Assembly: GCA_000146465.1 (NCBI GenBank)
Contig: CP001943.1
DNA: 64,000 nucleotides
Reading direction: 5' to 3' (one strand)
Of the stretch, positions 1,852-25,200 are shown one piece after another (positions within the stretch are counted from its first letter, which is position 1; each line of letters opens with the position of its first letter). The notes beneath the pieces were generated by a model. It worked only from the letters and a program-made list of their open reading frames with translations. It was not told where the DNA came from and ran no database searches. A program made the position numbers and the translations under genes.

Positions 1852-2490
1852 TCATTCTACCTTCTTCAGCTCCTTGTCTGTTTCCCTAATCACCTTTGAG
1901 GATCTTTCATTAATCATCGATATGTCGTTCACAATGCTCTTATGCCTGGCTGCTTCCTTATTCTGCTTGTCTGCCTCTACCCTTATCTGCCTCACCGTGT
2001 TCAACACTCCAACCATCTCCCGGTCAGTTTTGTTCTGCCCTTTTATGTACTCTTCTCCTTCTTCAAACTCCACGTGCTTGGGTGCTTGCTCTACATCGTT
2101 TTCTTCCTCCTGCCCCCTATTCACAATATCATCAATTCCTCCTCTATCTCTTCGAAACCATCTCTTTATCGCACGCACACATGGAAGTTCACAGCTGAAC
2201 ACTCTTCCTTCTCGCTCAATGTCCTCCGTAATCTCAGATCCCCTCCTAGCATTCACATTTATCCCAACCGCCGCTCTCTTTGCATTCTCCAGGGTCTCTC
2301 CTTGCCTCATAAGCTCCTCCGTCGTAGCCTTCTGCTTGAGAGCAGACTCGTCAAGCTGCATTCGAACCCCTTTTGCCCTTTCGTAGTTCTGCTCCTCAAT
2401 CCTTTCCGCCTCTTCAATCACATCCTGTGGGACCCCCTTCTTCTTCTTGCTCTTCACAGCCTTGTCCAGTGAGTAGACATCTCCTCCCAT
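1852..2490 (-). CDS. SNAP-25/Sec9-like Qbc SNARE (two coiled coils separated by a Cys cluster, no TM)
   Basis: ELMRQGETLENAKRAAVGINVNARRGSEITEDIEREGRVFSCELPC parallels SNAP-25 [41 protein letters not shown]. A second C-terminal heptad SNARE-like motif follows. There is no membrane anchor. Confidence 0.5.
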   Translation of the reverse strand: MGGDVYSLDKAVKSKKKKGVPQDVIEEAERIEEQNYERAKGVRMQLDESALKQKATTEELMRQGETLENAKRAAVGINVNARRGSEITEDIEREGRVFSCELPCVRAIKRWFRRDRGGIDDIVNRGQEEENDVEQAPKHVEFEEGEEYIKGQNKTDREMVGVLNTVRQIRVEADKQNKEAARHKSIVNDISMINERSSKVIRETDKELKKVE

Positions 2491-4301: not shown

Positions 4302-4961
4302 TCATTTCTTCTCCGGTTGCCCAGTCTCTGTAACCTCTATGAAGTTGTAGTTCAGGAGATCTGTAGGAGGCTTTGTCTCTTTCTCTTCCTTTTCAGGGCC
4401 CTGGAGTCTTTTCAAAGTTGTCTGGAATCGGCTCCTTAGAGACTCCAGATCCTTTGAGATCTTCTCCAAGGCTTTAAGTTCTTCTCCTATCTCTTTTATC
4501 TCGGCGCGGGTTAGAGAGATCTCTTTCTTCGGGCTCAACGGCTTGAGGAGAAATGATGCAGAGATCGGAGTTTCAAAAGTAAGCTCCGACTGGACTTCAG
4601 GCTTGGGGGCATCATCCGAGACTGTTTTTGACTCGTGATACCTCGAAGGAGTTGTTTTTTTCTCGACTTCGCTAAGAATACTCGGCAGCTTCTGCTCCGC
4701 ATTTGAATTCAAGACCACATTTTTCTTCCCAGAGTCCTCCTCAACCACTATCACAGTCTTCTTCCTGGGGGCGGGATTCTCTAAATCTTTGGAATGAGAT
4801 GGACTGTGCTTTCCCTTGGTAGGCAGGAGTCTGTGATGCTCATCCTTCACAGCAACCTCCAAAAACTTTTTGAAGATGTTATCTGTGGACTTGGTGGAAG
4901 AGTCCTCTGCACTGCAGAACACACTAAAGGTCAAGGTCATCGAGACCATCAGAAGCCTCAT
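4302..4961 (-). CDS. hypothetical secreted protein: signal peptide then a Lys/Glu/Ser/Pro-rich low-complexity region and a C-terminal coiled coil
   Basis: MRLLMVSMTLTFSVFCSAEDSS is a signal-peptide-like N-terminus. The remainder has no Cys and is charged and disordered. It ends in a heptad-like EIKEIGEELKALEKISKDLESLRSRFQTTLKRL. I recognise no domain. Confidence 0.5.
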   Translation of the reverse strand: MRLLMVSMTLTFSVFCSAEDSSTKSTDNIFKKFLEVAVKDEHHRLLPTKGKHSPSHSKDLENPAPRKKTVIVVEEDSGKKNVVLNSNAEQKLPSILSEVEKKTTPSRYHESKTVSDDAPKPEVQSELTFETPISASFLLKPLSPKKEISLTRAEIKEIGEELKALEKISKDLESLRSRFQTTLKRLQGPEKEEKETKPPTDLLNYNFIEVTETGQPEKK

Positions 4962-5058
4962 TATTTACAAACTGTCTTTTGAATTTGTAGCTTAATCAAA
5001 AACCTGTTTCAAAGGGTGGTTGGGATGTTGATATGTAAGCAGCAGTAGACCCACGATA

Positions 5059-5847
5059 ATGGATTTTGTTCCTCCAGCCAAGCAGAGAGAGCTGAGGTCT
5101 GCACTCGAGAAGATAGAGTCCGGCATAGTGGTGGTCCACGGGCCTCCGGGGTCTTCGAAGACTTACAGCATAGAGAGGACGGCTCAGGGCTTGGGCTTGT
5201 CCATAGAATATATCGAAGATGTCGGGATGTACAAAAGTATGCTTCCCATCCGGAATGCCATATGTCTTACAGACATGGATGACTATGAATACTTGTCCAG
5301 GCATAGAAAAAGACTGGAGAAAATGAAGAACTTGGTGATTGAGACTAGAACATTGTTCTCCATTGGGAAAATACTTCCAAATGCCACCATTGTGAATTTC
5401 GGAAAGATCTCAAGTAGGAAGATCCAGAAGTTTTACAATCTAAATGAAAAGGAGGCTTTGAAGGTGGGAGAAAACCTCCATGCTGTTGGGTTCTGTAAGT
5501 ATGGTATAAGAAGCGAGACTGTTTCAATATTCCATCTACTTGGAAAGCTGTTCCACTCGAAAGAAACAGATGTCCCAAAGGCTGCCGAAATGATCAATGT
5601 GTATGGGCGAGACCGATTTATTGGGTATTTGATCGAGAACTGCACATCTTTCATGTCTATTAAAGACATTCACAAGCTTATCGATGGAATTAGCCTTGAG
5701 GACATAGGAGAAATGCATCTGGAGCATTTGATTTGGGTGGTTTTGAGCTCGGTGAAGGTAGGCCCAAGGAGGTTTTTCAGCTTCCGGTCGTGGAAGGGGG
5801 CCGTCTTAAGTGAGCACACATGTAGCAACCTTTGCATGAACAGATAG
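5059..5847 (+). CDS. P-loop NTPase, AAA+-like (possible Rad17/Rad24- or RFC-like clamp-loader relative)
   Basis: Walker A IVVVHGPPGSSKTYS close to the N-terminus, as in clamp-loader subunits. The rest is divergent. CCC precedes the ATG. Confidence 0.35.
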   Translation: MDFVPPAKQRELRSALEKIESGIVVVHGPPGSSKTYSIERTAQGLGLSIEYIEDVGMYKSMLPIRNAICLTDMDDYEYLSRHRKRLEKMKNLVIETRTLFSIGKILPNATIVNFGKISSRKIQKFYNLNEKEALKVGENLHAVGFCKYGIRSETVSIFHLLGKLFHSKETDVPKAAEMINVYGRDRFIGYLIENCTSFMSIKDIHKLIDGISLEDIGEMHLEHLIWVVLSSVKVGPRRFFSFRSWKGAVLSEHTCSNLCMNR

Positions 5848-7385: not shown

Positions 7386-8903
7386 ATGTTTGTTTTACAC
7401 CTTGTGGTTACTCTGTGTTCATCTCTGGAAAGAGCTCTGCTAGAGGAAGGAGATATAGAGCATGCAACCCGCCTCTGCGGAACAAGGGAGGGCCCACTGG
7501 ACTATTTCTATAGCTACTTTGTCAAGAAGGTGTTTATGGGGAAGGAGAAGGAAGCCCTTCTTGACATTGTGGAGTCCGACAACTATGGAGATGCCCGAAA
7601 CATTGTTCTAGGGATAATGTCCATGGAGTCTGGAAAAACAAATGAAAAGGCAAAGCTTGCAGCCGATCTGCTTTGGAATGTGGCAACAAAAGTTTCCAGA
7701 AGGTACCTGAAGAACCCTCATGTATTTCTTGCCACAGAGCCTTTTGGGAAGCTTGAGAGAAACTTCTTGTCGAAAAAGGGAGTGGAAAACATTGTCACAA
7801 TGGTTTATTCGGGAGACGACATATCTGCAAGGCTTTTTCTATCGTTATTGGACAACCGCAAGATATACATTGGCGATTATGTCGATGTGATAGAGTTCCT
7901 TGCAAAAAACGATCATGCAAGAGCGTTTGGATATCTTGGGGAGATATATTATCATGGGATTCGGATGAAGAAGTCTTTGGACGAAGCCATGTACTTCTTC
8001 TCACGAGGGAGAGAGATGCAGGACACGGTGGGGGCCTGCGGTGTTGGAAAGGTACTTATGTCCGACGAGTACAGAGATTACAAGAACGCAAAGTCTGCAC
8101 TGTTGCTGGCAAACAAGCTTGGGCAGTCTGGAGAGGCCGAGTATCTGATGTATCTACTTATGAGTAGGAGGCCTGAGTACATGCACAAGGCCAGCTCACA
8201 CATGGACTCTGCCCTTATGTATGGATATCTTCCGGCTATATGCAGGGATGGAATGAACTACTACACAAGCGGACAGTATATGAATGCTTGCATTCGGTTC
8301 CACCCAATCATCGAGTACTCGGACATTGTATACAATCTGCGAAGAAGGGCAGAAGCCAGCTTTGTGTCTCGACGATACAGACAATGTGTGATTGCATTGC
8401 TCATGTGTGCAGAACTTGGATCTGTCTCCTCTATGAGAAATGCAGTATACGTCCTTCAAAGGCATTCGGTCTTCGAGAGGCAGAAGGAAATGCTCTTTGG
8501 GCTATACATGAGACTCCTTTCGAAAGAAGATAAGGATGCTATAAACAGGATAGGGGATGCCTATTTTTACGGAGAGGGGGTTGAGAAGTCGTACAACGAT
8601 GCATTCGCATTCTACATGTCTGCAGCTCTTACTGGAGATCCCGAGGGATACTACAATGTCAGTTATATGTATGAGCACGGGTATGGAATAAAAAAGAGCC
8701 TGTTGCTTGCCTTCAAGTACATTCTGAAGATCAGTCCCGGGGACGACACATATTTGCTCCTCTTGTACACACACATCAGACTCTTTTCCAAGTTTGTTAC
8801 CTATCTCCTGTTTAACAAGTACTCGATTTCTGTATGGATAGGAGCTCTGGTTGTAAGAAAGATGTACATATCCAAAAGGAGCACAAAGGATTTGAAGGAC
8901 TGA
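7386..8903 (+). CDS. Sel1-repeat membrane protein (Hrd3/SEL1L-like ERAD adaptor)
   Basis: Several Sel1-like repeats (GEIYYHGIRMKKSLDEAMYFF; GDAYFYGEGVEKSYNDAFAFYMSAALTGDPEGYYNVSYMYEHGYGIKKS). Hydrophobic N-terminus and a C-terminal TM (ISVWIGALVVRKMYI) with a short basic tail, as in Hrd3. Confidence 0.5.
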   Translation: MFVLHLVVTLCSSLERALLEEGDIEHATRLCGTREGPLDYFYSYFVKKVFMGKEKEALLDIVESDNYGDARNIVLGIMSMESGKTNEKAKLAADLLWNVATKVSRRYLKNPHVFLATEPFGKLERNFLSKKGVENIVTMVYSGDDISARLFLSLLDNRKIYIGDYVDVIEFLAKNDHARAFGYLGEIYYHGIRMKKSLDEAMYFFSRGREMQDTVGACGVGKVLMSDEYRDYKNAKSALLLANKLGQSGEAEYLMYLLMSRRPEYMHKASSHMDSALMYGYLPAICRDGMNYYTSGQYMNACIRFHPIIEYSDIVYNLRRRAEASFVSRRYRQCVIALLMCAELGSVSSMRNAVYVLQRHSVFERQKEMLFGLYMRLLSKEDKDAINRIGDAYFYGEGVEKSYNDAFAFYMSAALTGDPEGYYNVSYMYEHGYGIKKSLLLAFKYILKISPGDDTYLLLLYTHIRLFSKFVTYLLFNKYSISVWIGALVVRKMYISKRSTKDLKD

Positions 8904-9758: not shown

Positions 9759-9837
9759 TCGCTTGGTCCCCCTTTCAAAAACACATCCCTCCATCCGCCC
9801 CCCTTCTAAAACCACGGATTCCCTCAACCCACATAGG

Positions 9838-10311
9838 ATGTCCAGGACACTCGCCCCCGACGAGCTGCACATCCACAAAACTATTGCATCGAAGGTGGAT
9901 TTGGAAGAGATGGAAAGTGTTGAAAGCGTGTCCGTCATTGCAATGAACATGAGGCATTCAATTGTGAGTCCGGCGGTGTACAAGATAAAAGGAACCGACT
10001 CTCTCCTTATATTTGGAAGCATAGGGAATTCAATCGATCTTCGTGAACTTCAGAAGATGTATGAAAACAGTGTTAAAAGTTCGGAGACAGAGGAGCATGC
10101 TGGCCTTTATAGCAGTATCGGTGACAATCTGCAGAAGGAGGATGAGCAAAAACCTGAGGAAGTACCCGTCGAGGTTGACAACGAGCGGTTGTCCGAAGAG
10201 GATATAAAACTAATAAGCCAACAAGTTAAGGCTTCGAGGAGCGAAATAATTAGGGCACTAGCCGAGTCTGATTATGATGTTGTCAATGCAATGATAAAGC
10301 TAACTAAATAA
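9838..10311 (+). CDS. EGD2: nascent polypeptide-associated complex alpha subunit (NAC-alpha/Egd2)
   Basis: NAC domain (SPAVYKIKGTDSLLIFGSIGN) plus a C-terminal UBA (EEDIKLISQQVKASRSEIIRALAESDYDVVNAMIKLTK, compare [34 protein letters not shown]). The ORF-track start at 9763 is a TTG; the first ATG is at 9838 and is preceded by CCC. Confidence 0.65.
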   Translation: MSRTLAPDELHIHKTIASKVDLEEMESVESVSVIAMNMRHSIVSPAVYKIKGTDSLLIFGSIGNSIDLRELQKMYENSVKSSETEEHAGLYSSIGDNLQKEDEQKPEEVPVEVDNERLSEEDIKLISQQVKASRSEIIRALAESDYDVVNAMIKLTK

Positions 10312-13481: not shown

Positions 13482-15518
13482 ATGGCCCGAATTAAGATAA
13501 GCGGAGTTCCTATCGAGATGCCGTTTGAGCCGTATCCTGCACAGATAGTGACGATGACAAAGCTTATATCCTGTCTGACGACAGGAACAAGCGGACTGGT
13601 GGAGAGTCCGACAGGGACTGGAAAGAGCCTATCTATAATATGTGCAGTGCTGGGATATAGTGAATACTTGAAGAGAGGAGCCAAGAGCATCAATGTCAAG
13701 AGAAGAGAGGGGGGGAGTTTGAAAGGAGAAGAGGCAAAGGAGGAGAAGCTGAAGATAATTATATGCTCGCGCACACACAAACAACTTGACCAATTGATTG
13801 AACAGCTTAGGAAAACACATTACAGGCCAAGGATCTCGATCTTGGCAAGCAGGAGCCAGTATTGCATATCACCTAAGCTAGGGGATGTTACAGACAAGAA
13901 CACAGGGTGCAACGAGTTGGTGAAGAGCGGGAGTTGTGCTTACTTCACGGGAAAGGACAGGCTTGCAAAAAGGGTTGGAGACAGGATATTTGACATAGAG
14001 GAGTTGAAAGGGGAGGGCCGGAGATGTGGTGGATGTCCCTACTATGCATCGAGGATCTTGAATGAGGATGCAGAAGTCATATTTGCTCCATATAACTATC
14101 TGATTGATTCCAGAATAAGAGAAAACACAGGAATTAGCCTTGAAAACAGTGTGGTCATTGTTGATGAGGCACACAACATAGAGGATGTATGCCGATCGTC
14201 GGGCTCGATTGAACTTAGCTCGCGGACTATCGAGATAATCCAAAACGAGATTCTAGGGGCAATAAGGAGGAGCGGGATGCTAGGAGAGATCAAACTGGAC
14301 TTTGTCAACCTCATGGACTTCTTTAGGAAGCTTCGAGAGGGGGCAGAGAGCACAGACGGGTTTGACAGAACTACGTTTGGAGGGAAGCTCCGGATAAGGA
14401 AGGGGAAAGAGATAAAGGATGAGCTTGAGAAGATGGGAATAACTAAGGAGTTTGTTTTAAAGATCAAGAATTCAATATACGCAATCCAGAAGAATGAAGA
14501 TGCAAAGGACCTGCTGAACATGAGTACATTCCATGTACTGGAAGGTCTTGACTCTGTCTTGTCTGCAATTCATTTCAGCGGATGCGATGCGTATTCGTTT
14601 GTGTTCCAGAAGACGAACGACGAAAACATAAGAAACTCGAGGTTATCCAAGTTTTCCTACAACTTCTGGCTACTGGATGCGGGTTATACATTCCGATCGT
14701 TTGTTGGGAAGGTGCGGTCGATTGTACTTCTGTCTGGAACCTTGACACCTTTTTCTTCGTTTTCATCGGAGTTGGGGCATGACTTTACTCATTCGATTGT
14801 TGCACCTCATCTAGTTACGGAAAAACAAGTATTTGCTTCGTGTGTTCGGAAAGGACATCTGCTGAAGGACCTGACTGGAACCTATGGGGTTTCGGACACA
14901 CCCCAATATCTGGACCAACTTTCTAGAATCATAGTGGATGTGTCGAACAAGGTCAAGAGCCATGGGGGAACATTGGTGTTTGTACCGAGCTATAGCTTCT
15001 TGGAGAATCTGCAGAAGAGAATGGGAGGAGAGAGTTCGGGGTTGTTGATTGAACCAAAAAGCGGGGGAGGAAATGAGTTTGAAAAGGTGATGAAAAGATA
15101 TAAGAACAGAATAGCAACAAAGCAGAGGGCAATATTCATGTGTGTCTACCGTGGGAAGGCGAGTGAAGGAATCGACTTCAAGGATTCCTTTGCAAGGGCT
15201 GTTATTGCTGTTGGAATTCCCTATCCAAGCCTACATGATCCGCAGGTAGAACTTAAGAAGGAGTTTAACGACAGATACAAAAGCTTCAATGGACGGCTCT
15301 GGTACGAGGCACAGGCGTTTCGAGCAGTGAATCAAGCACTTGGACGAGCAATCCGTCACAAAGACGATTGGGGGATTGTGATGCTCCTTGACAGCAGATA
15401 TTCGGAGAAGAGAGTACAGACTCACCTGTCCAAGTGGGTTACAGACAACATCAGGGTTCATGACTCGTATGACACCTGTGCCTCTGAGCTCTCTGGATTT
15501 CTGTCTTTGATTAAATAG
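13482..15518 (+). CDS. Rad3/XPD-family Fe-S DNA helicase (DEAD_2/DEAH; XPD, Chl1 or RTEL1-like, subfamily unresolved)
   Basis: Motif I SPTGTGKSLS, IICSRTHKQL, four Cys ending in CPYY (an Fe-S domain), motif II VVIVDEAHNIED and a C-terminal Helicase_C_2 block (GRAIRHKDDWGIVMLLDSRY). Confidence 0.8.
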   Translation: MARIKISGVPIEMPFEPYPAQIVTMTKLISCLTTGTSGLVESPTGTGKSLSIICAVLGYSEYLKRGAKSINVKRREGGSLKGEEAKEEKLKIIICSRTHKQLDQLIEQLRKTHYRPRISILASRSQYCISPKLGDVTDKNTGCNELVKSGSCAYFTGKDRLAKRVGDRIFDIEELKGEGRRCGGCPYYASRILNEDAEVIFAPYNYLIDSRIRENTGISLENSVVIVDEAHNIEDVCRSSGSIELSSRTIEIIQNEILGAIRRSGMLGEIKLDFVNLMDFFRKLREGAESTDGFDRTTFGGKLRIRKGKEIKDELEKMGITKEFVLKIKNSIYAIQKNEDAKDLLNMSTFHVLEGLDSVLSAIHFSGCDAYSFVFQKTNDENIRNSRLSKFSYNFWLLDAGYTFRSFVGKVRSIVLLSGTLTPFSSFSSELGHDFTHSIVAPHLVTEKQVFASCVRKGHLLKDLTGTYGVSDTPQYLDQLSRIIVDVSNKVKSHGGTLVFVPSYSFLENLQKRMGGESSGLLIEPKSGGGNEFEKVMKRYKNRIATKQRAIFMCVYRGKASEGIDFKDSFARAVIAVGIPYPSLHDPQVELKKEFNDRYKSFNGRLWYEAQAFRAVNQALGRAIRHKDDWGIVMLLDSRYSEKRVQTHLSKWVTDNIRVHDSYDTCASELSGFLSLIK

Positions 15519-15626
15519 AAGGGACTTAAAATAAAATTGTGAAAGCAATGCTTCAACGTTTTTCTAGATTTTTCCGGCTGTTTCGAGGAAAACGAAAATA
15601 TTTAACGGGAAATTCCCTAGCAATTA

Positions 15627-17696
15627 ATGTCGTCCAAACAAGAATCATTGGCAGAAGGCACTATAAAAGACAAGCATCCTGAGACACATGGATTTGAGGT
15701 TGATGTGAATCAGATGATGGACACTATGATCAAGAGTGTGTACTCATCCAAGGAGCTCTTTCTTAGGGAGCTAGTATCGAACTCCAGCGATGCATGCGAC
15801 AAGCTTAAGTCGCTGTACTATGAACTGAATTCCAAGGGATGTGATCTGGACCCGGTTACATCTCTAAGTATTGAGATAATCCCGAACAAGACGAACAGAA
15901 CTTTGACCATCAAGGATAATGGGATTGGGATGACGAAGCCGGACCTGATGAACTTCATCGGAACTATTGCAAGCAGTGGAACCAAGAAGTTCCGAGAGGA
16001 GATGAAGGAGAAGGGGAATGCAGCAGATGCCTCCAACCTGATTGGGCAGTTTGGTCTTGGATTCTACTCGTCATACCTTGTAGCGGACAGGGTTGATGTG
16101 ATAACAAAGCATCCTGAGGATGAGGCTCTTGTGTGGACATCTACTGGAAGAGATGTGTACACTATAGAAGAGTACACTGGAGATTCTTTCTCTCACGGAA
16201 CATCATTGGTGCTTTATATCAAGGAGGGAGAGGAGGAATTCTTGGATCCAAAGAAGATTAGTGAGATAGTGAAGAAGTACTCTCTGTTTGTGTTCTATCC
16301 AATATACACATATGTTGAGAAGGAGATTGAAGAGCCTTCTGAGGAAAAGGAAGAAGAGAAGGAAGAAAAAGCAACCGAGGAAACAACTGAGCCAAAGGTT
16401 GAAGAGGCGAAGGAGAAGAGACTGAAGAAGGTTACACAGAGGGAGCAGATCAATGCGGAAAAGCCCTTGTGGAAGAGAAATATAAAGGAAGTTCCCGAGG
16501 AGGAGCTGAAGAGCTTCTACAAGACGATTTCCGAGGACTGGGATGACTTCCTTGCAGTTGACTTCTGGCGTGTTGAGGGGCTTCTATCGATTGATCTTCT
16601 TATGTTTATTCCGAAGAGAGCCAGGTTTGATATGTTCAACAGGAACAAGAAGAACAACAACATTAAGCTGTACTGTAAGAATGTGTTTGTGACTGATGAT
16701 TTCGGAGATTCTATTCCCGAGTGGATGTCGTTTGTCAGTGGTGTGATTGCTTCTGATGACATTCCTATGAACATCAGCCGAGAGATGATCCAGGGAACAA
16801 ATGTAATGAAGCTTGTCAAGAAGATTCTTCCACAGAAGATTTTCGAGATGATTGGAAAGCTTGCCATGGATGCTGAGAAGTACAAGACTTTCTACAAGGA
16901 GTTTGGAAACTGCATCAAGATGGCGATTGGAGAGGCAAGCGAAGGACAGCAGGATGGCTATGCAAAATGTCTTCGATATTTCACTACAAAGAGTGGAGAG
17001 GAGATGGTGTCTTTGGATACATATGTGGAGAGGATGGCAGCCAACCAGAAGCAGATCTATGTGATAACAGGGCTTGGAAAGGATCAGGTCAAATCAAATC
17101 CAGCTCTAGATGCATTCCAGAAGTACGAGGTAATCTACATGTACGATGTGATGGATGAGGTCATGCTCCGAGGACTCAAGAAATACAAGGGACATGCTAT
17201 TCAGAGGATAACAAGTGAAGGAGTAGAGCTTCCCGAAGATGAAGAAAACAATGAGGAAATTGTCAAGTCGTTCGAGGAGTTCTGCAAGAAGGCAAAGGAT
17301 CTTCTCTCAAACAAGGTGGAGAAAGTTACGGTGAATCCAAGGCTTGTGAGTGCACCGGCAGTTATCTCGACAACTAAGTACTCTCTATCTGGAACGATGG
17401 AAAACATAATGAGGTCCCAGCCTGTCACAGAGGCAAATCCGTTTGCAGCAATGACTGCAGTCAGCAAGAAGATCTTCGAGATGAATCCCCACCATAAACT
17501 TGTCAAGAATCTTAAGACACTTTTCGATAACAACGAAATTGAAAAGATGGGTAAGATGCTGGAGCTGTTCTTTGAGACGGTTCTTATCCACAATGGATTC
17601 ATGCTGTCAGATCCTAAGACATTCTGTGCCAATGTCTTTGAGTTCCTTTGCTCCTCGGAAGTAAAGAGTGAGGAGCTTGTGGAAGAGGTCCAGTGA
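15627..17696 (+). CDS. HSP90: cytosolic HSP90
   Basis: N-terminal ATPase signature FLRELVSNSSDACDKL, an acidic EEKEEEKEEK charged linker, and conserved middle and C domains. The C-terminus is ...LVEEVQ rather than MEEVD. Confidence 0.9.
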   Translation: MSSKQESLAEGTIKDKHPETHGFEVDVNQMMDTMIKSVYSSKELFLRELVSNSSDACDKLKSLYYELNSKGCDLDPVTSLSIEIIPNKTNRTLTIKDNGIGMTKPDLMNFIGTIASSGTKKFREEMKEKGNAADASNLIGQFGLGFYSSYLVADRVDVITKHPEDEALVWTSTGRDVYTIEEYTGDSFSHGTSLVLYIKEGEEEFLDPKKISEIVKKYSLFVFYPIYTYVEKEIEEPSEEKEEEKEEKATEETTEPKVEEAKEKRLKKVTQREQINAEKPLWKRNIKEVPEEELKSFYKTISEDWDDFLAVDFWRVEGLLSIDLLMFIPKRARFDMFNRNKKNNNIKLYCKNVFVTDDFGDSIPEWMSFVSGVIASDDIPMNISREMIQGTNVMKLVKKILPQKIFEMIGKLAMDAEKYKTFYKEFGNCIKMAIGEASEGQQDGYAKCLRYFTTKSGEEMVSLDTYVERMAANQKQIYVITGLGKDQVKSNPALDAFQKYEVIYMYDVMDEVMLRGLKKYKGHAIQRITSEGVELPEDEENNEEIVKSFEEFCKKAKDLLSNKVEKVTVNPRLVSAPAVISTTKYSLSGTMENIMRSQPVTEANPFAAMTAVSKKIFEMNPHHKLVKNLKTLFDNNEIEKMGKMLELFFETVLIHNGFMLSDPKTFCANVFEFLCSSEVKSEELVEEVQ

Positions 17697-17769
17697 ATCT
17701 TATTAAATAATTCTCTCAACACTTGTAACATTTGTGTTTCTGTTAATTGGCCCAAAAAAATTGCTGGGG

Positions 17770-20280
17770 ATGGAAGTGAAATTATGCGAAGATGCTTGGA
17801 AAGTTCTAAGTGCAATAAAGCAGACAATTGTTTCGGAAAGAATGAAAGATACGCCAGAGAACGTTACGGAGGCAGCGATTGAGACGTTTCTGGAGATGAG
17901 CCGAAGAAATGATCATTCGAAAGTGGAAGAGCTTCTTCAGATAATCCTGGCACATAAGAACTACATCACCGAGAAAAGTAGCACAGAGCTTGTGAGAAGA
18001 ATTCTTCTCTCCTTTAAGGAGAAGAAGGTTTATCTCCAAGGACTCCGGGTAATCAAGCATTTTGTGAAAAGCGGGAGATATCACATGTCGCACTTCAAGA
18101 TTCTTGTCGAAGACTGTTTTGGCCGGAAGTCACTAAAAACAAGGTCTGTGGAACTTGCAAAGAGATATCTGGAACTTGAGGAGTTTAGAAAGGAACTTCT
18201 AGGGTATATATCGAAGCTCGAAGGAACCGACTTGATAAGACACATCAACTGTTTCTTCGACTCTATTGCAGATGGAATTGATGTTGTAGAGAAACTTGAC
18301 TCATTTGTGAATCCGGATGTTTTTGAGGGGATGGAGACCGGCGAGGCAAGGGCACTGTACTCTGAATGCTGTGATATGCTCTACAAATATACGTTGATGG
18401 AGATGGAGGTTGGAATTCCGGATGAAAAGGTTTTTGAATACATAGTGAAGAAGCTTCAGATCCTGTTTGAAATTCCTTTTCCCAGGGGAGGAAAGCTCTT
18501 GGAAACTCTTTCATTACTTGCAGAAAAGGACTTGGTTGTTTCTTTAAGGAGCAAGCAGCATTTGATGAGATGGGATAAGAATCTGAAGAGAGAGGTTGTG
18601 AAAGAGCTCTGTGAGTCGAATTTGAAGAATGACAAAATATACGAGTTTATAAGATCTGTAAGGCACGTCCTTGTTCCCGAGTTCATGGATCTAATAAGAC
18701 ACATGGCAAGGAACTTTGTGGAAGGAGATGATAAATATCGATTTGCCCTTGGGGCAGTAGCAGGAATTATAGGAATCGAGGATCTATTTCTGGTACTAGA
18801 AGACATGGAAATAGAGATTAGGACATGGGCACCAATTATCCGATGTTCTTCAAATGGAGACATATCGTTTTTCATAAAGATTCTCCGGGATGTGGAGGAA
18901 AGAAAAGGTGTGGAATCTATCGACAGAACGATTCTCTTGAACTGTATTCCTGCATTCTGCAACTATGCAACTGATCGTACGGGTTCAATTGAAGGTCTCC
19001 TACAAATCATGAAAGCCAACCTAGGGAATTCAAACGTTTTTAATTCGATATGCACAGGACTAAGGAAGTTGATGCATTCCCACGAGAACAACATCAAGAA
19101 CAACTTGATTCTTCGAAACCCGATTCCTCCTGGGGAGTCGGAGAGAATCCTCCACTCAATCAGGAAATCCGAGATTGCTTTGGACATTCTTTCTGTAGGA
19201 ATTGGGAAGTGCTCTGATGAGCTGGATCAGACATTGTTCAAGCTACTGGAAACCGATGATTTTGGACTATCGAGCAGGATATTCCAGTATATCCTACTCT
19301 ACCCTCAGATTGAGTCTGTTACAGTCGGAAAGTGGAATCTATCGGGGATTTCGGATGTAATGAAGGTTGCAAGGTACTTTGTTCCAAAGATGAACAGCGA
19401 TTTCGAGATTTATAGCAAGCTCATGGAGTTCTGTCTTTCTGAGGACGGGGGAGCACAGAAAAGAGCATATCAGCTTCTGTATCACATGAAGAAGCATCAA
19501 AAGATTGATCTGTGCATCTGCGACACTTTATTTTCCCACGAAACCGATGAGAAGACAAAGGACTGCTCCCAGAAATGGAGGATTGCTCTTATTTATTCTG
19601 TTTATACAGTCGGATGCAAATGCTTTTCCGAGCGGAAGAAAGAATATCTCAACAGGATGCTTCCAGTGCTTGTGCTAGGTCTGAAGACAGGAAATGCTAA
19701 GGCCCGAAAGGTTTGTCAGGAAAATTTGGATGAACTTGTATCTGGGTTTTCATCTTCCGAATTTGATTTCTATTGTAGGCTAATGGTTGCAGGAACAGCA
19801 TCGGAAAATGTAGTTCTCAGATGCGGAATACTGGAAGCCTCTGTTGCACTAATAGAGAGCCACAGAGAAAGACTTTCCCAAGAATTCATCCAGTCGATGT
19901 ACGATGGCTGCCTCTCGACAAGTAGACTAGGAAGGGAAACTGTTCCCCATGTTCTCAAATTCTTAAATATCCTTGTTAGCACCTATGCAGTGAACCCTCA
20001 GGGATGTCTGGAAGTTTTAGAGCTATATGCAGACAAATTCAAAAGAAGATATGCAGAAGACGTCAAGTCGATTGTATCAAGACTGATTAGAAGAGATGTG
20101 GAGATCCCCAAGAGTCTCCGCCTTTTCTTGAAGGAAAGAAAAAGAAAAGGTCCTCGGGCAACCTTACAGATAACGAAGAAAAACAACGTGATGATCACAC
20201 AAGGAAAACAGAAACAGGAGAGCATTCCGTTTTCGGGCCACAGAAGAACCGTCAAGCGGAACAAGAGACACAAGAAATAA
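17770..20280 (+). CDS. large alpha-helical (HEAT/ARM-like) protein with a basic K/R-rich C-terminal tail; possible nucleolar ribosome-biogenesis factor
   Basis: 837-aa ORF that is all-helical by composition. The tail KERKRKGPRATLQITKK...HRRTVKRNKRHKK is typical of nucleolar proteins. The ORF-track start at 17734 is a GTG; the first ATG is at 17770 and is preceded by CCC. Confidence 0.4.
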   Translation: MEVKLCEDAWKVLSAIKQTIVSERMKDTPENVTEAAIETFLEMSRRNDHSKVEELLQIILAHKNYITEKSSTELVRRILLSFKEKKVYLQGLRVIKHFVKSGRYHMSHFKILVEDCFGRKSLKTRSVELAKRYLELEEFRKELLGYISKLEGTDLIRHINCFFDSIADGIDVVEKLDSFVNPDVFEGMETGEARALYSECCDMLYKYTLMEMEVGIPDEKVFEYIVKKLQILFEIPFPRGGKLLETLSLLAEKDLVVSLRSKQHLMRWDKNLKREVVKELCESNLKNDKIYEFIRSVRHVLVPEFMDLIRHMARNFVEGDDKYRFALGAVAGIIGIEDLFLVLEDMEIEIRTWAPIIRCSSNGDISFFIKILRDVEERKGVESIDRTILLNCIPAFCNYATDRTGSIEGLLQIMKANLGNSNVFNSICTGLRKLMHSHENNIKNNLILRNPIPPGESERILHSIRKSEIALDILSVGIGKCSDELDQTLFKLLETDDFGLSSRIFQYILLYPQIESVTVGKWNLSGISDVMKVARYFVPKMNSDFEIYSKLMEFCLSEDGGAQKRAYQLLYHMKKHQKIDLCICDTLFSHETDEKTKDCSQKWRIALIYSVYTVGCKCFSERKKEYLNRMLPVLVLGLKTGNAKARKVCQENLDELVSGFSSSEFDFYCRLMVAGTASENVVLRCGILEASVALIESHRERLSQEFIQSMYDGCLSTSRLGRETVPHVLKFLNILVSTYAVNPQGCLEVLELYADKFKRRYAEDVKSIVSRLIRRDVEIPKSLRLFLKERKRKGPRATLQITKKNNVMITQGKQKQESIPFSGHRRTVKRNKRHKK

Positions 20281-20352
20281 AACTTCATTTAATTTTGGTC
20301 TTCAAAATAATTCTATCTGTTTTTTTATTTATCTCTTCTGTAGCACTAGAAG

Positions 20353-22164
20353 TCATGCATAGGACCGTACAAAGTTAAGCTCCTCGTCAAAACTGTCATC
20401 GTAGTCCATTGTTGGAGCCTCCATTCCGATGCTTTCGCAGAAATTAGTAAAAAGGATCTTTAGGTCGAGAGATTCCTCCTTGTTTACGCAATCTCTGAGT
20501 ACAGAGAAGTATTGTCTTTGCATGTCTATAGGCATTTTTTGGAGGAGCATCATGGCAATCTTGCATCTAAAGGATGCACCCACCTTAAGCTGAAGTGCCC
20601 TGTCAACAAGATAAGCCCAAGTATCTTTATTCTCAAGCAGCATTAGGCTTGAGTACAGCCTTGCAAGGGAAATAGACTTGTGTTTCGAATATCCATACAT
20701 AATCTCTATGCTAGGAATTATTACATTCATCACTTGCATGCTTATCTCGGCCTTGTGCACAACAGAAGCCAGAAAGTCAATATCCTCAAAAACCCATGGA
20801 TGCAGAAAGATCGACATAAGTGTGGCCTTGCTCTTGATAAGACAAGACCAAAGTAAAGAGTCTCCGTCAAAGGCCTCCTTCCTGAAAAAGTATCTGAAAA
20901 ATCCTGTGTAATCTGCACAGAGTATAGATTGGGAAGGGGAAAAGAGTCTTGAGAGACAGTTGTTTACATGTACAAAGTCTACCTTCGAAGCCCTGTAGTT
21001 CCTGATTCTTTCTATAAACTCGCGAATTCTATGGCTGGTTGCCTCGTTCAAGAGGAAATACCGTCCTATCCCATTGAGACACATACAGTATGCTTCAATG
21101 TTCTTGGTCTTGAAGAGATAATCCAAGAGCCCAAACATCTCATCAGAAGAAACCTCTCTGAACTTACACATCTCGGATATAAGTAAGCAATTCGATATCA
21201 CATCGTTGTGGCTTGGGTTCTTTGCCTGATATATTTCTCTGAAGAGAACTGCTACAACTTTTCTTGCAACAGCTCCCATGTTTTTAAGTATCCTGGCTAT
21301 GCTTGATATGAAGTTAGGGTTGAGCTTCAACTGCATAAGCATGAAAACAACCTCCTTCTGGTTGTTTACGTTTTTTATGGATTTCGATAATGCATCCAAC
21401 TTCTCTGTATCTCCAGAATGCATAATGATGTAGTCCCTTATCTCTTTTATGTCCAGGCCCCCATCATAACATTCCAATGAGGCAGTACGCCCGGTGTAAT
21501 AGTGGAACTCCTCGTTCTCCACATCGGCCATCTTCTTAAGGTCATATCCCTCGTCACACACCTTTATCCCAAGAGACCTTGCTACAACATCAAGCCTCCC
21601 ACCCCTGTCTTCACTAGTCTGCGGATCTATCCTTTTAGCTTGGTTAGAAACCTCTGCTTGGCTTAGTTCATCCTTATAGTTTTCCATTATGTATCCGAGA
21701 AAGAGGATTCTAGGTTTTTCACTTATCTTGTTGCATAGATCTCTGATCAGATTTTCTCTTCTCTCCTCTTTATCCACAGTCCTTCTTGATAGAGTCTGCA
21801 AATCAAAGAAAAAGGCTGCAAGCCAGTACTTCTCCGTCTCCTCAATTCCATGATTTATGATCTTTCCTAATTCCGACATCAACAGCCTCATGAAGTCGCT
21901 GCATGATGTAAGTGCAGACGTCACCCGGACAACACTCTTGATGTCGTCTGTAGATTGTACTTTTGATAGAAGTATCGAAGTAACTATCTCGGAGGTGAAC
22001 TTGCTCATGTCTTCCTTCTCAAGATCACTTTTAATCGCTTCTACACTTTCTGAATTTATGTTTTTAAGCTTCTTTATGATCGAAAGCTTTTTTCTAAGCG
22101 GAGAGTTTCTCTTTCTTTCTGTATAAGGAACTCCCAAAGCCATAAGCTCATCTTCCCAATTCAT
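20353..22164 (-). CDS. conserved hypothetical helical-repeat protein (MIF4G/ARM-like?)
   Basis: 603-aa uninterrupted ORF starting at an ATG, followed by GGG on the plus strand. I find no confident domain match. The composition is that of a helical repeat protein. Confidence 0.4.
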   Translation of the reverse strand: MNWEDELMALGVPYTERKRNSPLRKKLSIIKKLKNINSESVEAIKSDLEKEDMSKFTSEIVTSILLSKVQSTDDIKSVVRVTSALTSCSDFMRLLMSELGKIINHGIEETEKYWLAAFFFDLQTLSRRTVDKEERRENLIRDLCNKISEKPRILFLGYIMENYKDELSQAEVSNQAKRIDPQTSEDRGGRLDVVARSLGIKVCDEGYDLKKMADVENEEFHYYTGRTASLECYDGGLDIKEIRDYIIMHSGDTEKLDALSKSIKNVNNQKEVVFMLMQLKLNPNFISSIARILKNMGAVARKVVAVLFREIYQAKNPSHNDVISNCLLISEMCKFREVSSDEMFGLLDYLFKTKNIEAYCMCLNGIGRYFLLNEATSHRIREFIERIRNYRASKVDFVHVNNCLSRLFSPSQSILCADYTGFFRYFFRKEAFDGDSLLWSCLIKSKATLMSIFLHPWVFEDIDFLASVVHKAEISMQVMNVIIPSIEIMYGYSKHKSISLARLYSSLMLLENKDTWAYLVDRALQLKVGASFRCKIAMMLLQKMPIDMQRQYFSVLRDCVNKEESLDLKILFTNFCESIGMEAPTMDYDDSFDEELNFVRSYA

Positions 22165-22223
22165 AGAAGGGACTTTCCTCCCAAAGGATTTATTACACTG
22201 GGGGCTTCTTGAAGCCCTTGGAC

Positions 22224-25200
22224 ATGAACCGGAACTATTTGAAGAACCTCTATCTCCAGCAACTCGAATCGGAACGGTATTCAGATGTATTCCGAGAAAG
22301 CCTACATAGCCTAGTGTCTGTGGAAATAATGAATACCGTTATACTCTTGGCTGTTAAGGATGATGACGAGGATGCACTCATCGATCTTCTGGAGTTGTTT
22401 CTGCAACATCTAGAGACCAACCCTATATTTTATGAGAAACTTGGGAAATCAAACCTTCACTTACTTCTGTTGGAACGTCCACTGAGGATGCAGAGCTACA
22501 CAAAACTAAAGTTGGTTTATGATAAGGTTAGGCCCAAGAGAACTCCACTAAGCTTTGAGCATACAGAGTTTCTCGCCAAAAACTTTTACAATTACTGTCT
22601 CTACAAGTACGCATACAATGATTATCAGTTCGACCTTGAGATGTCTGTGGAAGGATTTGGGCCGGTGGAGATGAATTTGTTCAAAGATCTCCTTAGGAAG
22701 ATATGCATTGAAAATAGAGAGAACGAGCATCTTGCTAATTATGTAAGAACTCTTCCCATGGACACAAATGTCTTTCTTGCTATAGTGGAGCCGGATTTCA
22801 AGGTAGATGCATCGAAGCTTGAGCCAGAGGATTTATTTGTTGTGTACCCAGCTCAGGTCCAAAGATGTAACCTGGGCTTGTTTACAAAGCCATTTCTTTG
22901 CAGTTTGAACTCTAAGGAGGGTCTTTGCAGAGTTTGTGGGAGAAGAGTTCTAGAATACCACTTTGAGGAGATCGACCACGAAGAATACCTGGAAAGTATA
23001 GCAGGAAATATCAAAGAGATATGTTTTGCTGTAAGTCATTGGGAAAAGGCCAGAACGCCTCGGGTGCTTATAACTGTTCTCAGGTCTCTGTTCAAAGGAT
23101 GCGAAGATCTCGAATGTTACAAATCCCTAAAGTACTTTCCGGTGAAAGAGGAGAGCGATATGGAGGATATAGTTGTAAAGTTCTTAAGATATGCAGCAAG
23201 CACATTGAACATTGAGAACATCCAGGTATCCCTCAGGATGCTTCCGTTTACAAGCCACACCCCAAAAGTAATATTTTCATACTTTGTTATTTTATTTGAA
23301 AGCTTACGAAAGTATCCGGAAAATGGGTTTTTGAGAAGCATAGTAAAGAATGTGGTGATGAGGAACAAGGACAAATTTATGAAGATAAGAGCAATGATAT
23401 TTGAATACTATATGAAGGGGGACGAAGAGTCGGTGTTTGACATTCCAAATAGAGAAAAAGAGGGAAGAGGCTTGAAGGATGGAAAGGACTTTAATACAAG
23501 CATAAGCGATAGACTTGAACGTAGACTTGCACCGTTGTCTGAATTCTTCAGCGAGGAGTGCGGATCTTTCGTTAAAAACAACATGTTCTACATATATCCT
23601 ATCATATACTCACTATGGCTTCCTCGTTGCACCCAGGATCTTGGATTTACTCAGGCAAATAACCACTTTCTAGTAATATCGCTTTGCCTCCAAGGGGAAG
23701 AAAGCAGAATAGATGAAATAGGATATGAAAAAGACGAACTGTATGGAATGGGGGTTGATGTAATTGTTCCCCTTTTGTGCAACGGATACTTCAAATATGA
23801 TATTCTGGAAAGGTTTTTTGGGGATACTCGGAAGTATATAAGCATCCACTTACCGAAGTTTTTATTTGCATTGAAGAAGGTGTATGTAGAAAGACCTTTT
23901 GAGTTTCGAGTATGTGTGTTTAAGGTTCTGAAGTGCATTATAGATGCAATTTCCAACAATGTGAAGATGTTGTTCAACTATCTATTTCCGTTTGTGGAGT
24001 TCTTTATGAGAAAACATGAAGACTCGTGTGGAATGGATTGCAAGATGATTTTCATTGAGTATTATTCATCATTTTTTGAGAACGATTGTTTTATCCGAAA
24101 CATGCCCAGGATATTTCCATATTTAGACGTTGAAAAGATAGTGAAGTGGAGCAATGCAAAGAATGAGGAAGACTACCTGGATATAGTCCTTGGGCTTTTG
24201 AACACCAAAGGGCACTTTTCACAGGAAATGGCCACCTCTAAAGCGGTGGAACTTCTTACAAGGGTCTTTGGAAGTATAGATAAAGATGGAGTGCTTGATG
24301 AAGAAAGCTTTGTGGAAAACATTCTTACCCGATTCTTTAAGAGCCCTACGTTTAGAATTAAGGTTGGGAGTATCTACAGGCGACTTAGAGAAGTGGAAAG
24401 TGATGCAGCATTCCTGATTGGATGTATATCACAGGAGTTTCTGGAACCAGAGATCCATCCCTCTGTCTGTGACGTTCCTATTATGGGGAATACTCCGGAA
24501 GCAATTGCTAGAGTGATGATTGAAAGGTATCTACTCGAGATAGATCCTGGAAAACAAGATCTTCATTTTTTCATAATACAGGAGACTTTAAAGTTTATTA
24601 GAGGGCCTTTAAGCGACAGTATAGAAGAAGTTGTTGATCAGTTTAGAAACACACAGTATCTCTATGAGCACGTGCCTACATATTCAACGGAGAAGTTGTA
24701 TGAAAAGACACATACATTTAAGAAGTTCCTCGAAAGGCTGTATCGGCACACCCTCTCAGAAGTTGAAAGGAGGAACAAAAAGGAATATTTTAATCTTCTT
24801 AGATATGGAGATCTGCTTGGGATTCCGTTTCTGGAGTTCCATTGCTTGTCCCTGTGCAGGCTACTTCTAGATTCGGGAGACAGCAGAGTTGCAGGGATTG
24901 CACAGAATATATCCCAGGACCTCGAGGGGGGAGTGGACAGAAAGATTGCAAGGTTTGTTCTGAAACTACACAGGTTCACAGAAGGGAAGTATGTTCCAGA
25001 TCTTGTGATACTCAGGATATCTATTTTTCTCAAGGACCATTATAACGCTATCCAGGTTTTAGAGAAGATGATAAGAAAAGAAAGGAGAAGGGATCTCTTT
25101 GATCTCCTCCAATACAACTACTATTGGATCAAGGACTATGACAAAGTACTAGGAATAAACTCGGTATTTGGGAGACCAACACTGATCAACCTTTTTTTTG

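Follow-up and report, generated by a model that had tools for sequence, protein, structure and literature searches.

Positions 4302..4961 (minus strand) of the window, by which we mean the whole 64,000-nucleotide stretch of contig CP001943.1 (GenBank assembly GCA_000146465.1) analysed here, hold a complete coding sequence of 219 codons followed by TGA, as defined from the open reading frame (ORF) list and its translation. A sequence-only reading of this DNA had proposed a 219-amino-acid (aa) ORF at this place, and its position and the sequence quoted for it were found to be exact; the single competing ORF in the interval is one of 62 aa on the plus strand (4794-4982). In the first protein search, the window protein was 100% identical over 98% of its length to a cluster whose full-length 219-aa member is Eint_020940 of Encephalitozoon intestinalis ATCC 50506 (ADM11092.1), a conserved microsporidian hypothetical protein, which places the window on E. 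intestinalis chromosome II. This gene had been annotated before but left uncharacterised, and what the present analysis adds is the definition of its family, three signature motifs, the selective constraint on the gene, and an induction of its ortholog that is similar to that of the polar-tube proteins (PTPs). Two Logan gene calls in the family, those for P0001 (identical to E. intestinalis) and P0003, begin at an internal methionine and lose part of the signal peptide. As the orthologs retain MRLL or MKLL, translation is likely to start from the ATG at 4961. A check of the gene region with Rfam (both strands), Tandem Repeats Finder (TRF), and compositional measures gave no RNA family, tandem repeat, or compositional anomaly, and a literature search with the locus tags, accessions, and motif peptides of the family found no paper naming them.

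The sequence-only reading had recognised no homologue, and in this respect it has to be corrected, as 12 relatives (E<=0.01) emerged from the first protein search, with E-values of 1e-86 to 1e-17 for the orthologs, and profile searches added more. The named orthologs are EHEL_020910 of E. hellem (72% identity), EROM_020900 of E. romaleae (70%), ECU02_0990 / M970_020940 of E. cuniculi (66%), HK407_02g03890 of Ordospora pajunii (39%), and CWI42_020940 of O. colligata (36%); further microsporidian orthologs were found in read-archive assemblies and in one JGI metagenome, and the annotation is "hypothetical" throughout. When the family profile was run by HMMER against the full set of 1.84 billion representative proteins, it gave only microsporidian relatives and gained the distant members P0018 and P0019, while two other matches, P0017 and P0020, were discarded as spurious repeat proteins. 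Using P0019 as a new seed led to NGRA_1745 of Nosema granulosis, to which the Nosema-type search seed is 71% identical, and a wider profile led to two more AT-rich relatives. The description of the protein as lineage-specific is upheld by these searches, the relatives being found only in microsporidia, where they occur in several genera. For the window protein and 15 family members, no Pfam family scored above its cut-off and only sub-threshold coiled-coil noise was seen, a profile search of the PDB found no related structure (best match SRP54, E=0.27), and a scan of metagenome contigs with the family patterns produced 600 pattern matches, none of which was confirmed. P0018, a truncated family member on a JGI contig (with P0025), carries the JGI name "allophanate hydrolase subunit 1", which is an evident misannotation.

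On one flank of Eint_020940 are genes for a thioredoxin reductase, a DUF5089 protein, a p24/GOLD protein, a TRAPP subunit, and archease, and on the other flank are those for a small P-loop RAD24-like protein, a LisH/CTLH protein, an LSM protein, and a Sel1-repeat protein, a gene set that bears out the earlier statement that the gene is located amid conserved housekeeping genes. The order of archease, the family gene, the RAD24-like gene, CTLH, LSM, and Sel1 is unchanged in E. cuniculi (L005), in O. pajunii (L006), and in the GC-rich species of L001, and the family gene occurs once per genome at all the loci examined. In N. granulosis (L004) and on a JGI contig (L002), the family member comes directly after the Sel1 gene, and this adjacency suggests that the two genes were linked at an earlier time and were later separated by an insertion or a rearrangement. 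The Sel1-repeat gene itself lies at 7386-8903 (+) in the window, at 1430-2878 in L004, and at 1000-2508 in L002, and in Encephalitozoon and Ordospora it is three genes from the family gene. Within the reach of the searches, the family thus appears from its sequences to be single-copy, syntenic, and confined to the Encephalitozoon/Ordospora/Nosema part of the microsporidian phylum.

The ratio of nonsynonymous to synonymous substitution rates (dN/dS) was computed against the E. cuniculi ortholog, with twelve neighbour genes as the comparison set. For Eint_020940 it is 0.146 (dN 0.22, dS ~1.5), compared with 0.055-0.171 for the twelve neighbours, the TRAPP subunit having an equal value, and the protein identity of 66% to E. 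cuniculi is at the low end of the 64-90% found for the neighbours. It is clear from these values that Eint_020940 is a real gene under purifying selection, comparable to that on its housekeeping neighbours. The constraint is distributed unevenly along the gene, with a near-neutral dN/dS of 1.3 in the signal-peptide region (codons 1-19), the strongest constraint in the mature N-terminus (codons 20-45, dN/dS 0.038), and a dN/dS of 0.076 in the C-terminal part (codons 121-219). The fastest change at the protein level is found in the linker between them (codons 46-120), with a dN of 0.41 against 0.07-0.11 in the flanking segments.

Residues 1-18 (MRLLMVSMTLTFSVFCSA; 4908..4961, minus strand) constitute a predicted cleavable signal peptide, as judged by the n-region, the hydrophobic core, and the residues at -3 and -1, with the predicted cleavage before E19. 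The n-region is basic and is followed by an uncharged hydrophobic stretch of ~16 residues, with C16 at -3, A18 at -1, and the acidic EDSS next, and AlphaFold2 (AF2) models a helix at residues 3-16 within this region. An equivalent hydrophobic N-terminus is present in 16 of the 18 family members, and the two exceptions resemble truncated gene calls on short contigs. The N-terminus had been described as signal-peptide-like in the sequence-only reading, and the basic n-region, the hydrophobic core, the small residues at -3 and -1, and the recurrence across the family all agree with that description. The rule-based test for signal peptides is unselective, being passed by 19 of the 75 ORFs in the window, and the prediction is made instead because the hydrophobic character is kept in 16 of the 18 members while the sequence drifts near-neutrally. 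A pattern in which character is conserved and sequence is free is typical of cleaved signal peptides, and Eint_020940 is probably secreted. A hydropathy scan of the protein found no second hydrophobic segment (maximum KD19 1.24, at residue 1) and no tail of the glycosylphosphatidylinositol (GPI) type.

The mature chain was expected from the sequence-only reading to be cysteine-free, rich in charged residues together with serine and proline, and intrinsically disordered, and each of these expectations is in agreement with the data. The sole cysteine of the whole protein, C16, is inside the predicted signal peptide, with none after residue 18. The mature part contains 35% charged residues at a net charge of ~0, its commonest residues are K/E/S/L/T/P, and by charge and hydropathy it is placed on the disordered side of the boundary. 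AF2 run with the family alignment gave a mean predicted local distance difference test score (pLDDT) of 58, with values below 50 over most of residues 50-116 and with helices at 3-16, 27-44, and 152-187, the last at ~90. The variable, charged, disordered linker (aa 45-120; 4602..4829, minus strand) is marked by low pLDDT and differs in length and sequence between genera. A scan of the mature chain found no N-glycosylation sequon and no Cardin-Weintraub heparin-binding motif. The terms "low-complexity" and "repetitive", by contrast, do not fit this protein: the mean entropy in 20-aa windows is 3.22 bits, close to the 3.24-3.44 of neighbouring proteins, a half-against-half self-alignment in search of internal repeats scored no better than shuffled sequences, and TRF found no tandem repeat.

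Toward the C-terminus lies an amphipathic helix with heptad-type periodicity (aa 152-187; 4401..4508, minus strand), a candidate short coiled coil, which is modelled at a pLDDT of 85-94 in two independent AF2 runs. The second of these, on residues 117-219 with 18 sequences, gave only this helix and no other fold. Its conserved hydrophobic residues are spaced at intervals of 3-4, the periodicity at 3.5 residues exceeds that at 3.6 in all 18 members (z = 2.6-4.7 against shuffled sequences), and the heptad pattern runs for ~5 heptads with one break. On the basis of the model and this periodicity, a short coiled coil of about five heptads within 152-187 is plausible. The earlier claim that the protein ends in a heptad coiled coil is therefore right about the presence of a heptad-periodic helix but not about its position, as 32 residues come after it and these include the invariant TDLLNYNFIEVTE.

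The strongest conservation is found not in the long helix but in EDSS..DNIFKKFLE, in ELTFETPISASFLLKP (124-141), just before the helix, and in TDLLNYNFIEVTE, just after it, and these three short invariant motifs, which the sequence-only reading had missed, are the real signature of the family. The first belongs to the conserved mature N-terminus, EDSSTKSTDNIFKKFLEVAVKDEHHR (aa 19-44; 4830..4907, minus strand), which has a dN/dS of 0.038 and contains an amphipathic helix at 27-44 that AF2 also models; F33 and L34 are invariant in alignment A1, and the segment EDSSTKSTDNIFKKFLEVAVKDEHHR aligns with EDSSSGNDVIIKISE of the Nosema-type members. Motif 1, QSELTFETPISASFLLKP (aa 124-141; 4539..4592, minus strand), has the family consensus [LS]T[FY][EQK]xPxSxx[FIL]L[LF]K. 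Its invariant or near-invariant columns in A1 are Q124, L127, T128, F129, E130, P132, S134, A135, L138, L139, and K140, and its T, P, S, L, and K stay invariant once the Nosema-type members are added. Motif 2, TDLLNYNFIEVTE (aa 200-212; 4326..4364, minus strand), is followed by a short K-rich tail and has the family consensus DL[LF]N[YI][NK][FV]IEV[TS][ED]; it consists of 13 successive invariant or near-invariant columns in A1, of which N, I, E, and V do not vary among the 18 members. The Nosema-type counterparts of the three motifs are EDSSSGNDVIIKISE, DSTYQVPTSNILFKD, and RDLFNIKVIEVSD, and across alignments A1-A3 the window protein matches the shared forms EDSS..DNIFKKFLE, [LS]T[FY]xxPxS..L[LF]K, and DL[LF]N[YI][NK][FV]IEV[TS]. 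Motifs 1 and 2 are unstructured in the AF2 monomer, and it is because the motifs are invariant yet unstructured in the monomer model that we read them as putative docking or assembly sites. Two further candidate motifs were dropped: a SUMO-interaction-like VIVVEEDS in the linker, whose position is not conserved after aligning the Nosema-type members, and an LC3-interaction motif in TDLLNYNFIEV, whose aromatic residues are replaced by I or V in the Nosema-type members.

Information on the timing of expression comes from the E. cuniculi RNA-seq of Grisdale et al. 2013 (PMC3629993, Additional file 1), sampled at 24, 48, and 72 h. The ortholog ECU02_0990 is listed there at 116.69, 447.03, and 492.45 fragments per kilobase of transcript per million mapped reads (FPKM), equivalent to increases of 3.83x and 4.22x over 24 h, and the adjacent tags ECU02_0980 and ECU02_1000 are flat (1.0-1.2x at 48 h and 0.9-1.2x at 72 h). 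In the same table the corresponding increases at 48 and 72 h are 3.82x and 4.07x for PTP1, 4.40x and 4.85x for PTP2, 2.59x and 2.86x for PTP3, 1.96x and 2.10x for PTP4, and 2.25x and 2.48x for chitin deacetylase, with SWP1, EnP1, and EnP2 at 2.6-2.8x at both times (PMC3629993). That study counts the rises of PTP1 and PTP2 among the strongest positive changes and reads the shift from 24 to 48 h as the start of spore-related gene expression (PMC3629993). Among the 1,985 genes, the 72 h/24 h ratio of ECU02_0990 is exceeded by only ~10 well-expressed genes and a few with an FPKM below 10, a rank that was taken by inspection of the table and is approximate. The absolute transcript level of ECU02_0990 is near those of PTP3 and PTP4 and far under those of the major wall proteins. 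When sporogony begins, the E. cuniculi ortholog is induced alongside PTP1 and PTP2.

Several other uncharacterised genes of E. cuniculi rise as strongly as PTP1 and PTP2 between 24 and 72 h, including ECU06_0580, ECU08_1810, ECU06_0670, ECU05_0590, and ECU08_1885, and further genes with such PTP-like induction are ECU11_1300, ECU08_1390, ECU05_0210, ECU08_1550, the chromosome 2 run ECU02_0150-0190, and ECU02_0280. These strongly induced uncharacterised genes are a natural candidate list for more spore and polar-tube proteins.

When set beside the known proteins of the polar tube and spore wall, Eint_020940 appears to resemble most the PTP3-type cysteine-poor, charged, disordered proteins and Eint_070340, and it is a member of no named PTP or SWP family. 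It shares with PTP3 (ECU11_1440) a predicted secretory route, richness in charge, a largely disordered chain, and a near or complete absence of cysteine (PTP3: PMC10229552, PMC10931468), along with the transcript level (~500 FPKM) and the induction at 48-72 h of its ortholog. Because both proteins are nearly or wholly without cysteine, an association of either with the tube would be non-covalent. It differs from PTP3 in size (219 aa, compared with >1,100 aa for PTP3) and in the absence of any sequence similarity found, and PTP3 was recovered in an E. hellem polar-tube extract, whereas EHEL_020910 was not. With PTP1 and PTP2 (ECU06_0250 and ECU06_0240) it has in common a signal peptide, predicted here, and a near-identical induction profile in E. 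cuniculi, and PTP2 is also lysine-rich and of a comparable size class. However, PTP1 and PTP2 carry many disulfide-linking cysteines and are encoded in the conserved ptp1-ptp2 gene cluster, while Eint_020940 has no mature cysteine, lies between the archease and RAD24-like genes, shows no similarity to them, and has 5- to 6-fold lower transcripts in its ortholog. Unlike the ricin-B-lectin (RBL) polar-tube proteins such as PTP4, PTP5, and PTP6, in which the signal peptide precedes a single ricin-B domain, the family has no ricin-type Pfam match (15 members), and AF2 gives helices and disorder with no beta-trefoil; identity with PTP6 in particular was rejected, as PTP6 of E. intestinalis is another protein (E0S8R2), which has a ricin-B fold.

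Eint_070340 offers a parallel of another kind, as it is also a hypothetical protein with a predicted signal peptide that is upregulated late, together with the PTPs (PMC11972355). It was singled out as polar-tube-associated purely from its signal peptide and its late co-upregulation with the PTPs (PMC11972355). In that single-cell study of E. intestinalis, genes of the sporoblast cluster P4 code for close to half of the predicted secreted proteins, most of the unnamed secreted proteins of P4 have poor AlphaFold models, and Eint_070340, an unknown of that P4 kind, was localised to the polar tube (PMC11972355). It is nonetheless a different gene on a different chromosome with no homology seen to Eint_020940, and its localisation is experimental, whereas Eint_020940 is known from its sequence and the expression of its ortholog.

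With the wall proteins SWP1, EnP1, EnP2/SWP3, N. bombycis SWP5, and SWP26, Eint_020940 shares the traits of being small, sporogonic, predicted to be secreted, and found only in microsporidia, and those proteins often have disordered regions rich in Ser, Lys, and Glu. At 221 aa, EnP2 is close to it in length, as is N. bombycis SWP5 at 186 aa. It differs from them in that no homology was detected and in that no cysteine, Cardin-Weintraub motif, or GPI-type C-terminus was found in its mature chain, and the transcripts of its ortholog are 30- to 50-fold under those of SWP1, EnP1, and EnP2. Adhesive proteins of the EnP1 and SWP26 type differ further in having heparin-binding motifs (XBBXBX / XBBBXXBX) and/or a cysteine-rich domain. 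The idea that the family corresponds to N. bombycis SWP5, a secreted protein of 186 aa that binds PTP2 and PTP3, received no support, and a search seeded with a Nosema-type member returned no N. bombycis protein among its matches. NcSWP8 was likewise rejected as a relative, as it has no signal peptide and an isoelectric point of 4.35.

Given these properties, we consider the chances to be evenly balanced that Eint_020940 is secreted at the sporogony stage and serves the polar tube or spore wall as a scaffold or assembly protein. The protein would be produced mainly at the switch from proliferation to spore formation and would travel via the secretory pathway, entering the endoplasmic reticulum (ER) co-translationally and losing its signal peptide after Ala18. 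The resulting cysteine-free mature chain of 201 aa would be largely unfolded, with the helices at 152-187 self-pairing into a short coiled coil, as their periodicity and the AF2 models suggest. Each oligomer would then display multiple copies of the EDSS..DNIFKKFLE helix and of the beta-prone ELTFETPISASFLLKP and TDLLNYNFIEVTE, and these motifs may dock non-covalently onto other secreted proteins of sporogony. In this way the protein would act in the polar tube or spore wall as a multivalent scaffold or assembly factor that is not linked by disulfides, with the charged linker serving as a spacer. A more ambitious version of this proposal, which we put forward with distinctly greater reserve, is that the proteins from Encephalitozoon, Ordospora, and Nosema make up a new family of structural proteins of the invasion apparatus, in the polar tube or in the anchoring/wall structures, and that the two beta-prone motifs and the coiled coil provide a new disulfide-independent interface linking the polymers of the tube or wall.

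Several observations count against a role in the tube or wall. No named PTP or SWP relative was found in three database searches and the HMMER scan of 1.84 billion representatives, and the protein was found to contain no heparin-binding motif, mature-chain cysteine, chitin-binding domain, or ricin-B domain. The expression data are bulk RNA-seq of the E. cuniculi ortholog and not of E. intestinalis. In addition, and weakly against such a role, the list of 22 hypothetical proteins with signal peptides from the E. hellem polar-tube extract (PMC6703431, Table S1) does not contain EHEL_020910, and an E. hellem cross-linking mass spectrometry preprint makes no mention of the ortholog of Eint_020940. 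The E. hellem extract is a cross-linked one, extracted with dithiothreitol, and its protocol starts with a wash in sodium dodecyl sulfate (SDS) (PMC6703431); this wash could remove a cysteine-free, SDS-soluble protein.

The absence from the extract list would also fit a helper in the lumen of the secretory pathway, an escort or chaperone specific to microsporidia in the ER or Golgi-like network that would bind tube or wall precursors by its short motifs while secretion surges in sporogony, without being built into the spore. We regard this as unlikely overall, but it accounts for a number of the same facts. A predicted signal peptide, a disordered chain with short conserved motifs, and induction alongside the presumed clients are all consistent with it, and late induction as such would suit a helper of this kind too. 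The moderate transcript level of ~450-490 FPKM, compared with 14,000-24,000 for structural wall proteins, and an evolutionary rate resembling that of the housekeeping neighbours are in its favour as well. However, the protein has no retrieval signal of the HDEL/KDEL type and no membrane anchor, its C-terminus being ...TETGQPEKK, and Pfam and PDB profile searches revealed no similarity to known chaperone or cargo-receptor families. The family was also detected only in Encephalitozoon, Ordospora, and Nosema, whereas core machinery would be expected phylum-wide, an argument that is weakened by the limits of detection.

The sequence-only reading had named both a spore-wall or polar-tube component and a host-exposed effector as possibilities, and it is the former that is favoured by the 3.8-4.2x induction of the ortholog together with PTP1 and PTP2, while the latter has become less likely. 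Under the effector proposal the protein would be exposed to the host or to the parasitophorous vacuole and would act on the vacuole lumen, the vacuole membrane, or the host cell, and we consider this improbable because the gene has a single copy in a syntenic position, evolves under purifying selection, and has a family member in Nosema too. Host-exposed microsporidian families tend to be large, lineage-specific, fast-evolving, and often subtelomeric, a description that is not matched by the core-genome synteny or by a dN/dS (0.146) and an identity to E. cuniculi (66%) that both lie in the neighbours' range. Nosema, which is not known to use a vacuole, develops directly in the host cytoplasm, and the presence of family members in that genus counts against a function in one. 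The expression of the ortholog is also lowest at 24 h, the time of niche establishment, and climbs with the spore-formation genes. The predicted signal peptide, the intrinsic disorder, and the short linear motifs, which are common in effectors, do fit such a role, and there is a precedent in secreted Encephalitozoon proteins that touch host structures, such as SSP1 (PMC6703431). A non-secreted, intracellular coiled-coil factor of sporogony, for example a cytoskeletal or nuclear one, in which the N-terminal stretch serves as a membrane anchor or buried helix, is very unlikely: the unselective rule-based signal-peptide test, the weak sub-threshold Pfam coiled-coil matches (Nuf2_DHR10-like, E=0.019, and similar), and the lysine clusters that could serve as nuclear localisation signals would allow for it, but the stretch is short (10-16 uncharged residues), lies at the extreme N-terminus after a basic residue and before a small-residue site and an acidic end, and is retained across genera in character but not in sequence, which is the signature of a cleaved signal peptide, and the Pfam matches are far under the gathering cut-offs and inconsistent between members.

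As a new component of the spore or polar tube, Eint_020940 is thus a reasonable candidate that is still unproven. Not all proteins of the polar tube and spore wall, the structures on which infection by human-pathogenic Encephalitozoon depends, have been listed so far, and this protein would be an inexpensive and specific subject for localisation by antibody and for interaction work, in which the three motifs could be mutated or used as peptide antigens. If the scaffold role is true, the motifs would indicate how components of the tube or wall are held together where the bonds are non-covalent; if the protein is a luminal helper or something ordinary, little would be lost.

Beyond the gene itself, the 97-bp intergenic region at 4962..5058 (no strand assigned), delimited by the ORF coordinates, is the presumed promoter and is shared with the divergent RAD24-like gene. 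It contains the elements GAAAC-N2-GTTT and CTACAAATTCA, which are kept in the corresponding regions of E. cuniculi and L001 and not clearly in Ordospora. The divergent neighbour (5059-5847, +) encodes a 262-aa P-loop protein (GPPGSSKT) with weak RAD24_helical and AAA_16 Pfam matches, and its product is possibly a much-reduced clamp-loader subunit of the RAD17/RAD24 type. At 1852-2490 (-) is the gene for a 212-aa protein with a very strong match to Pfam DUF5089 (E=1e-66); this protein, which has no known function, shares 85% identity with its E. cuniculi ortholog, a conservation that exceeds that of most neighbours. The ORF at 9763-10311 (+), for which the list gives a TTG start, ends in a UBA-like region (…SRSEIIRALAESDYDVVNAMIKLTK) and may encode a protein of the NAC-alpha/EGD2 type with its true ATG further in.

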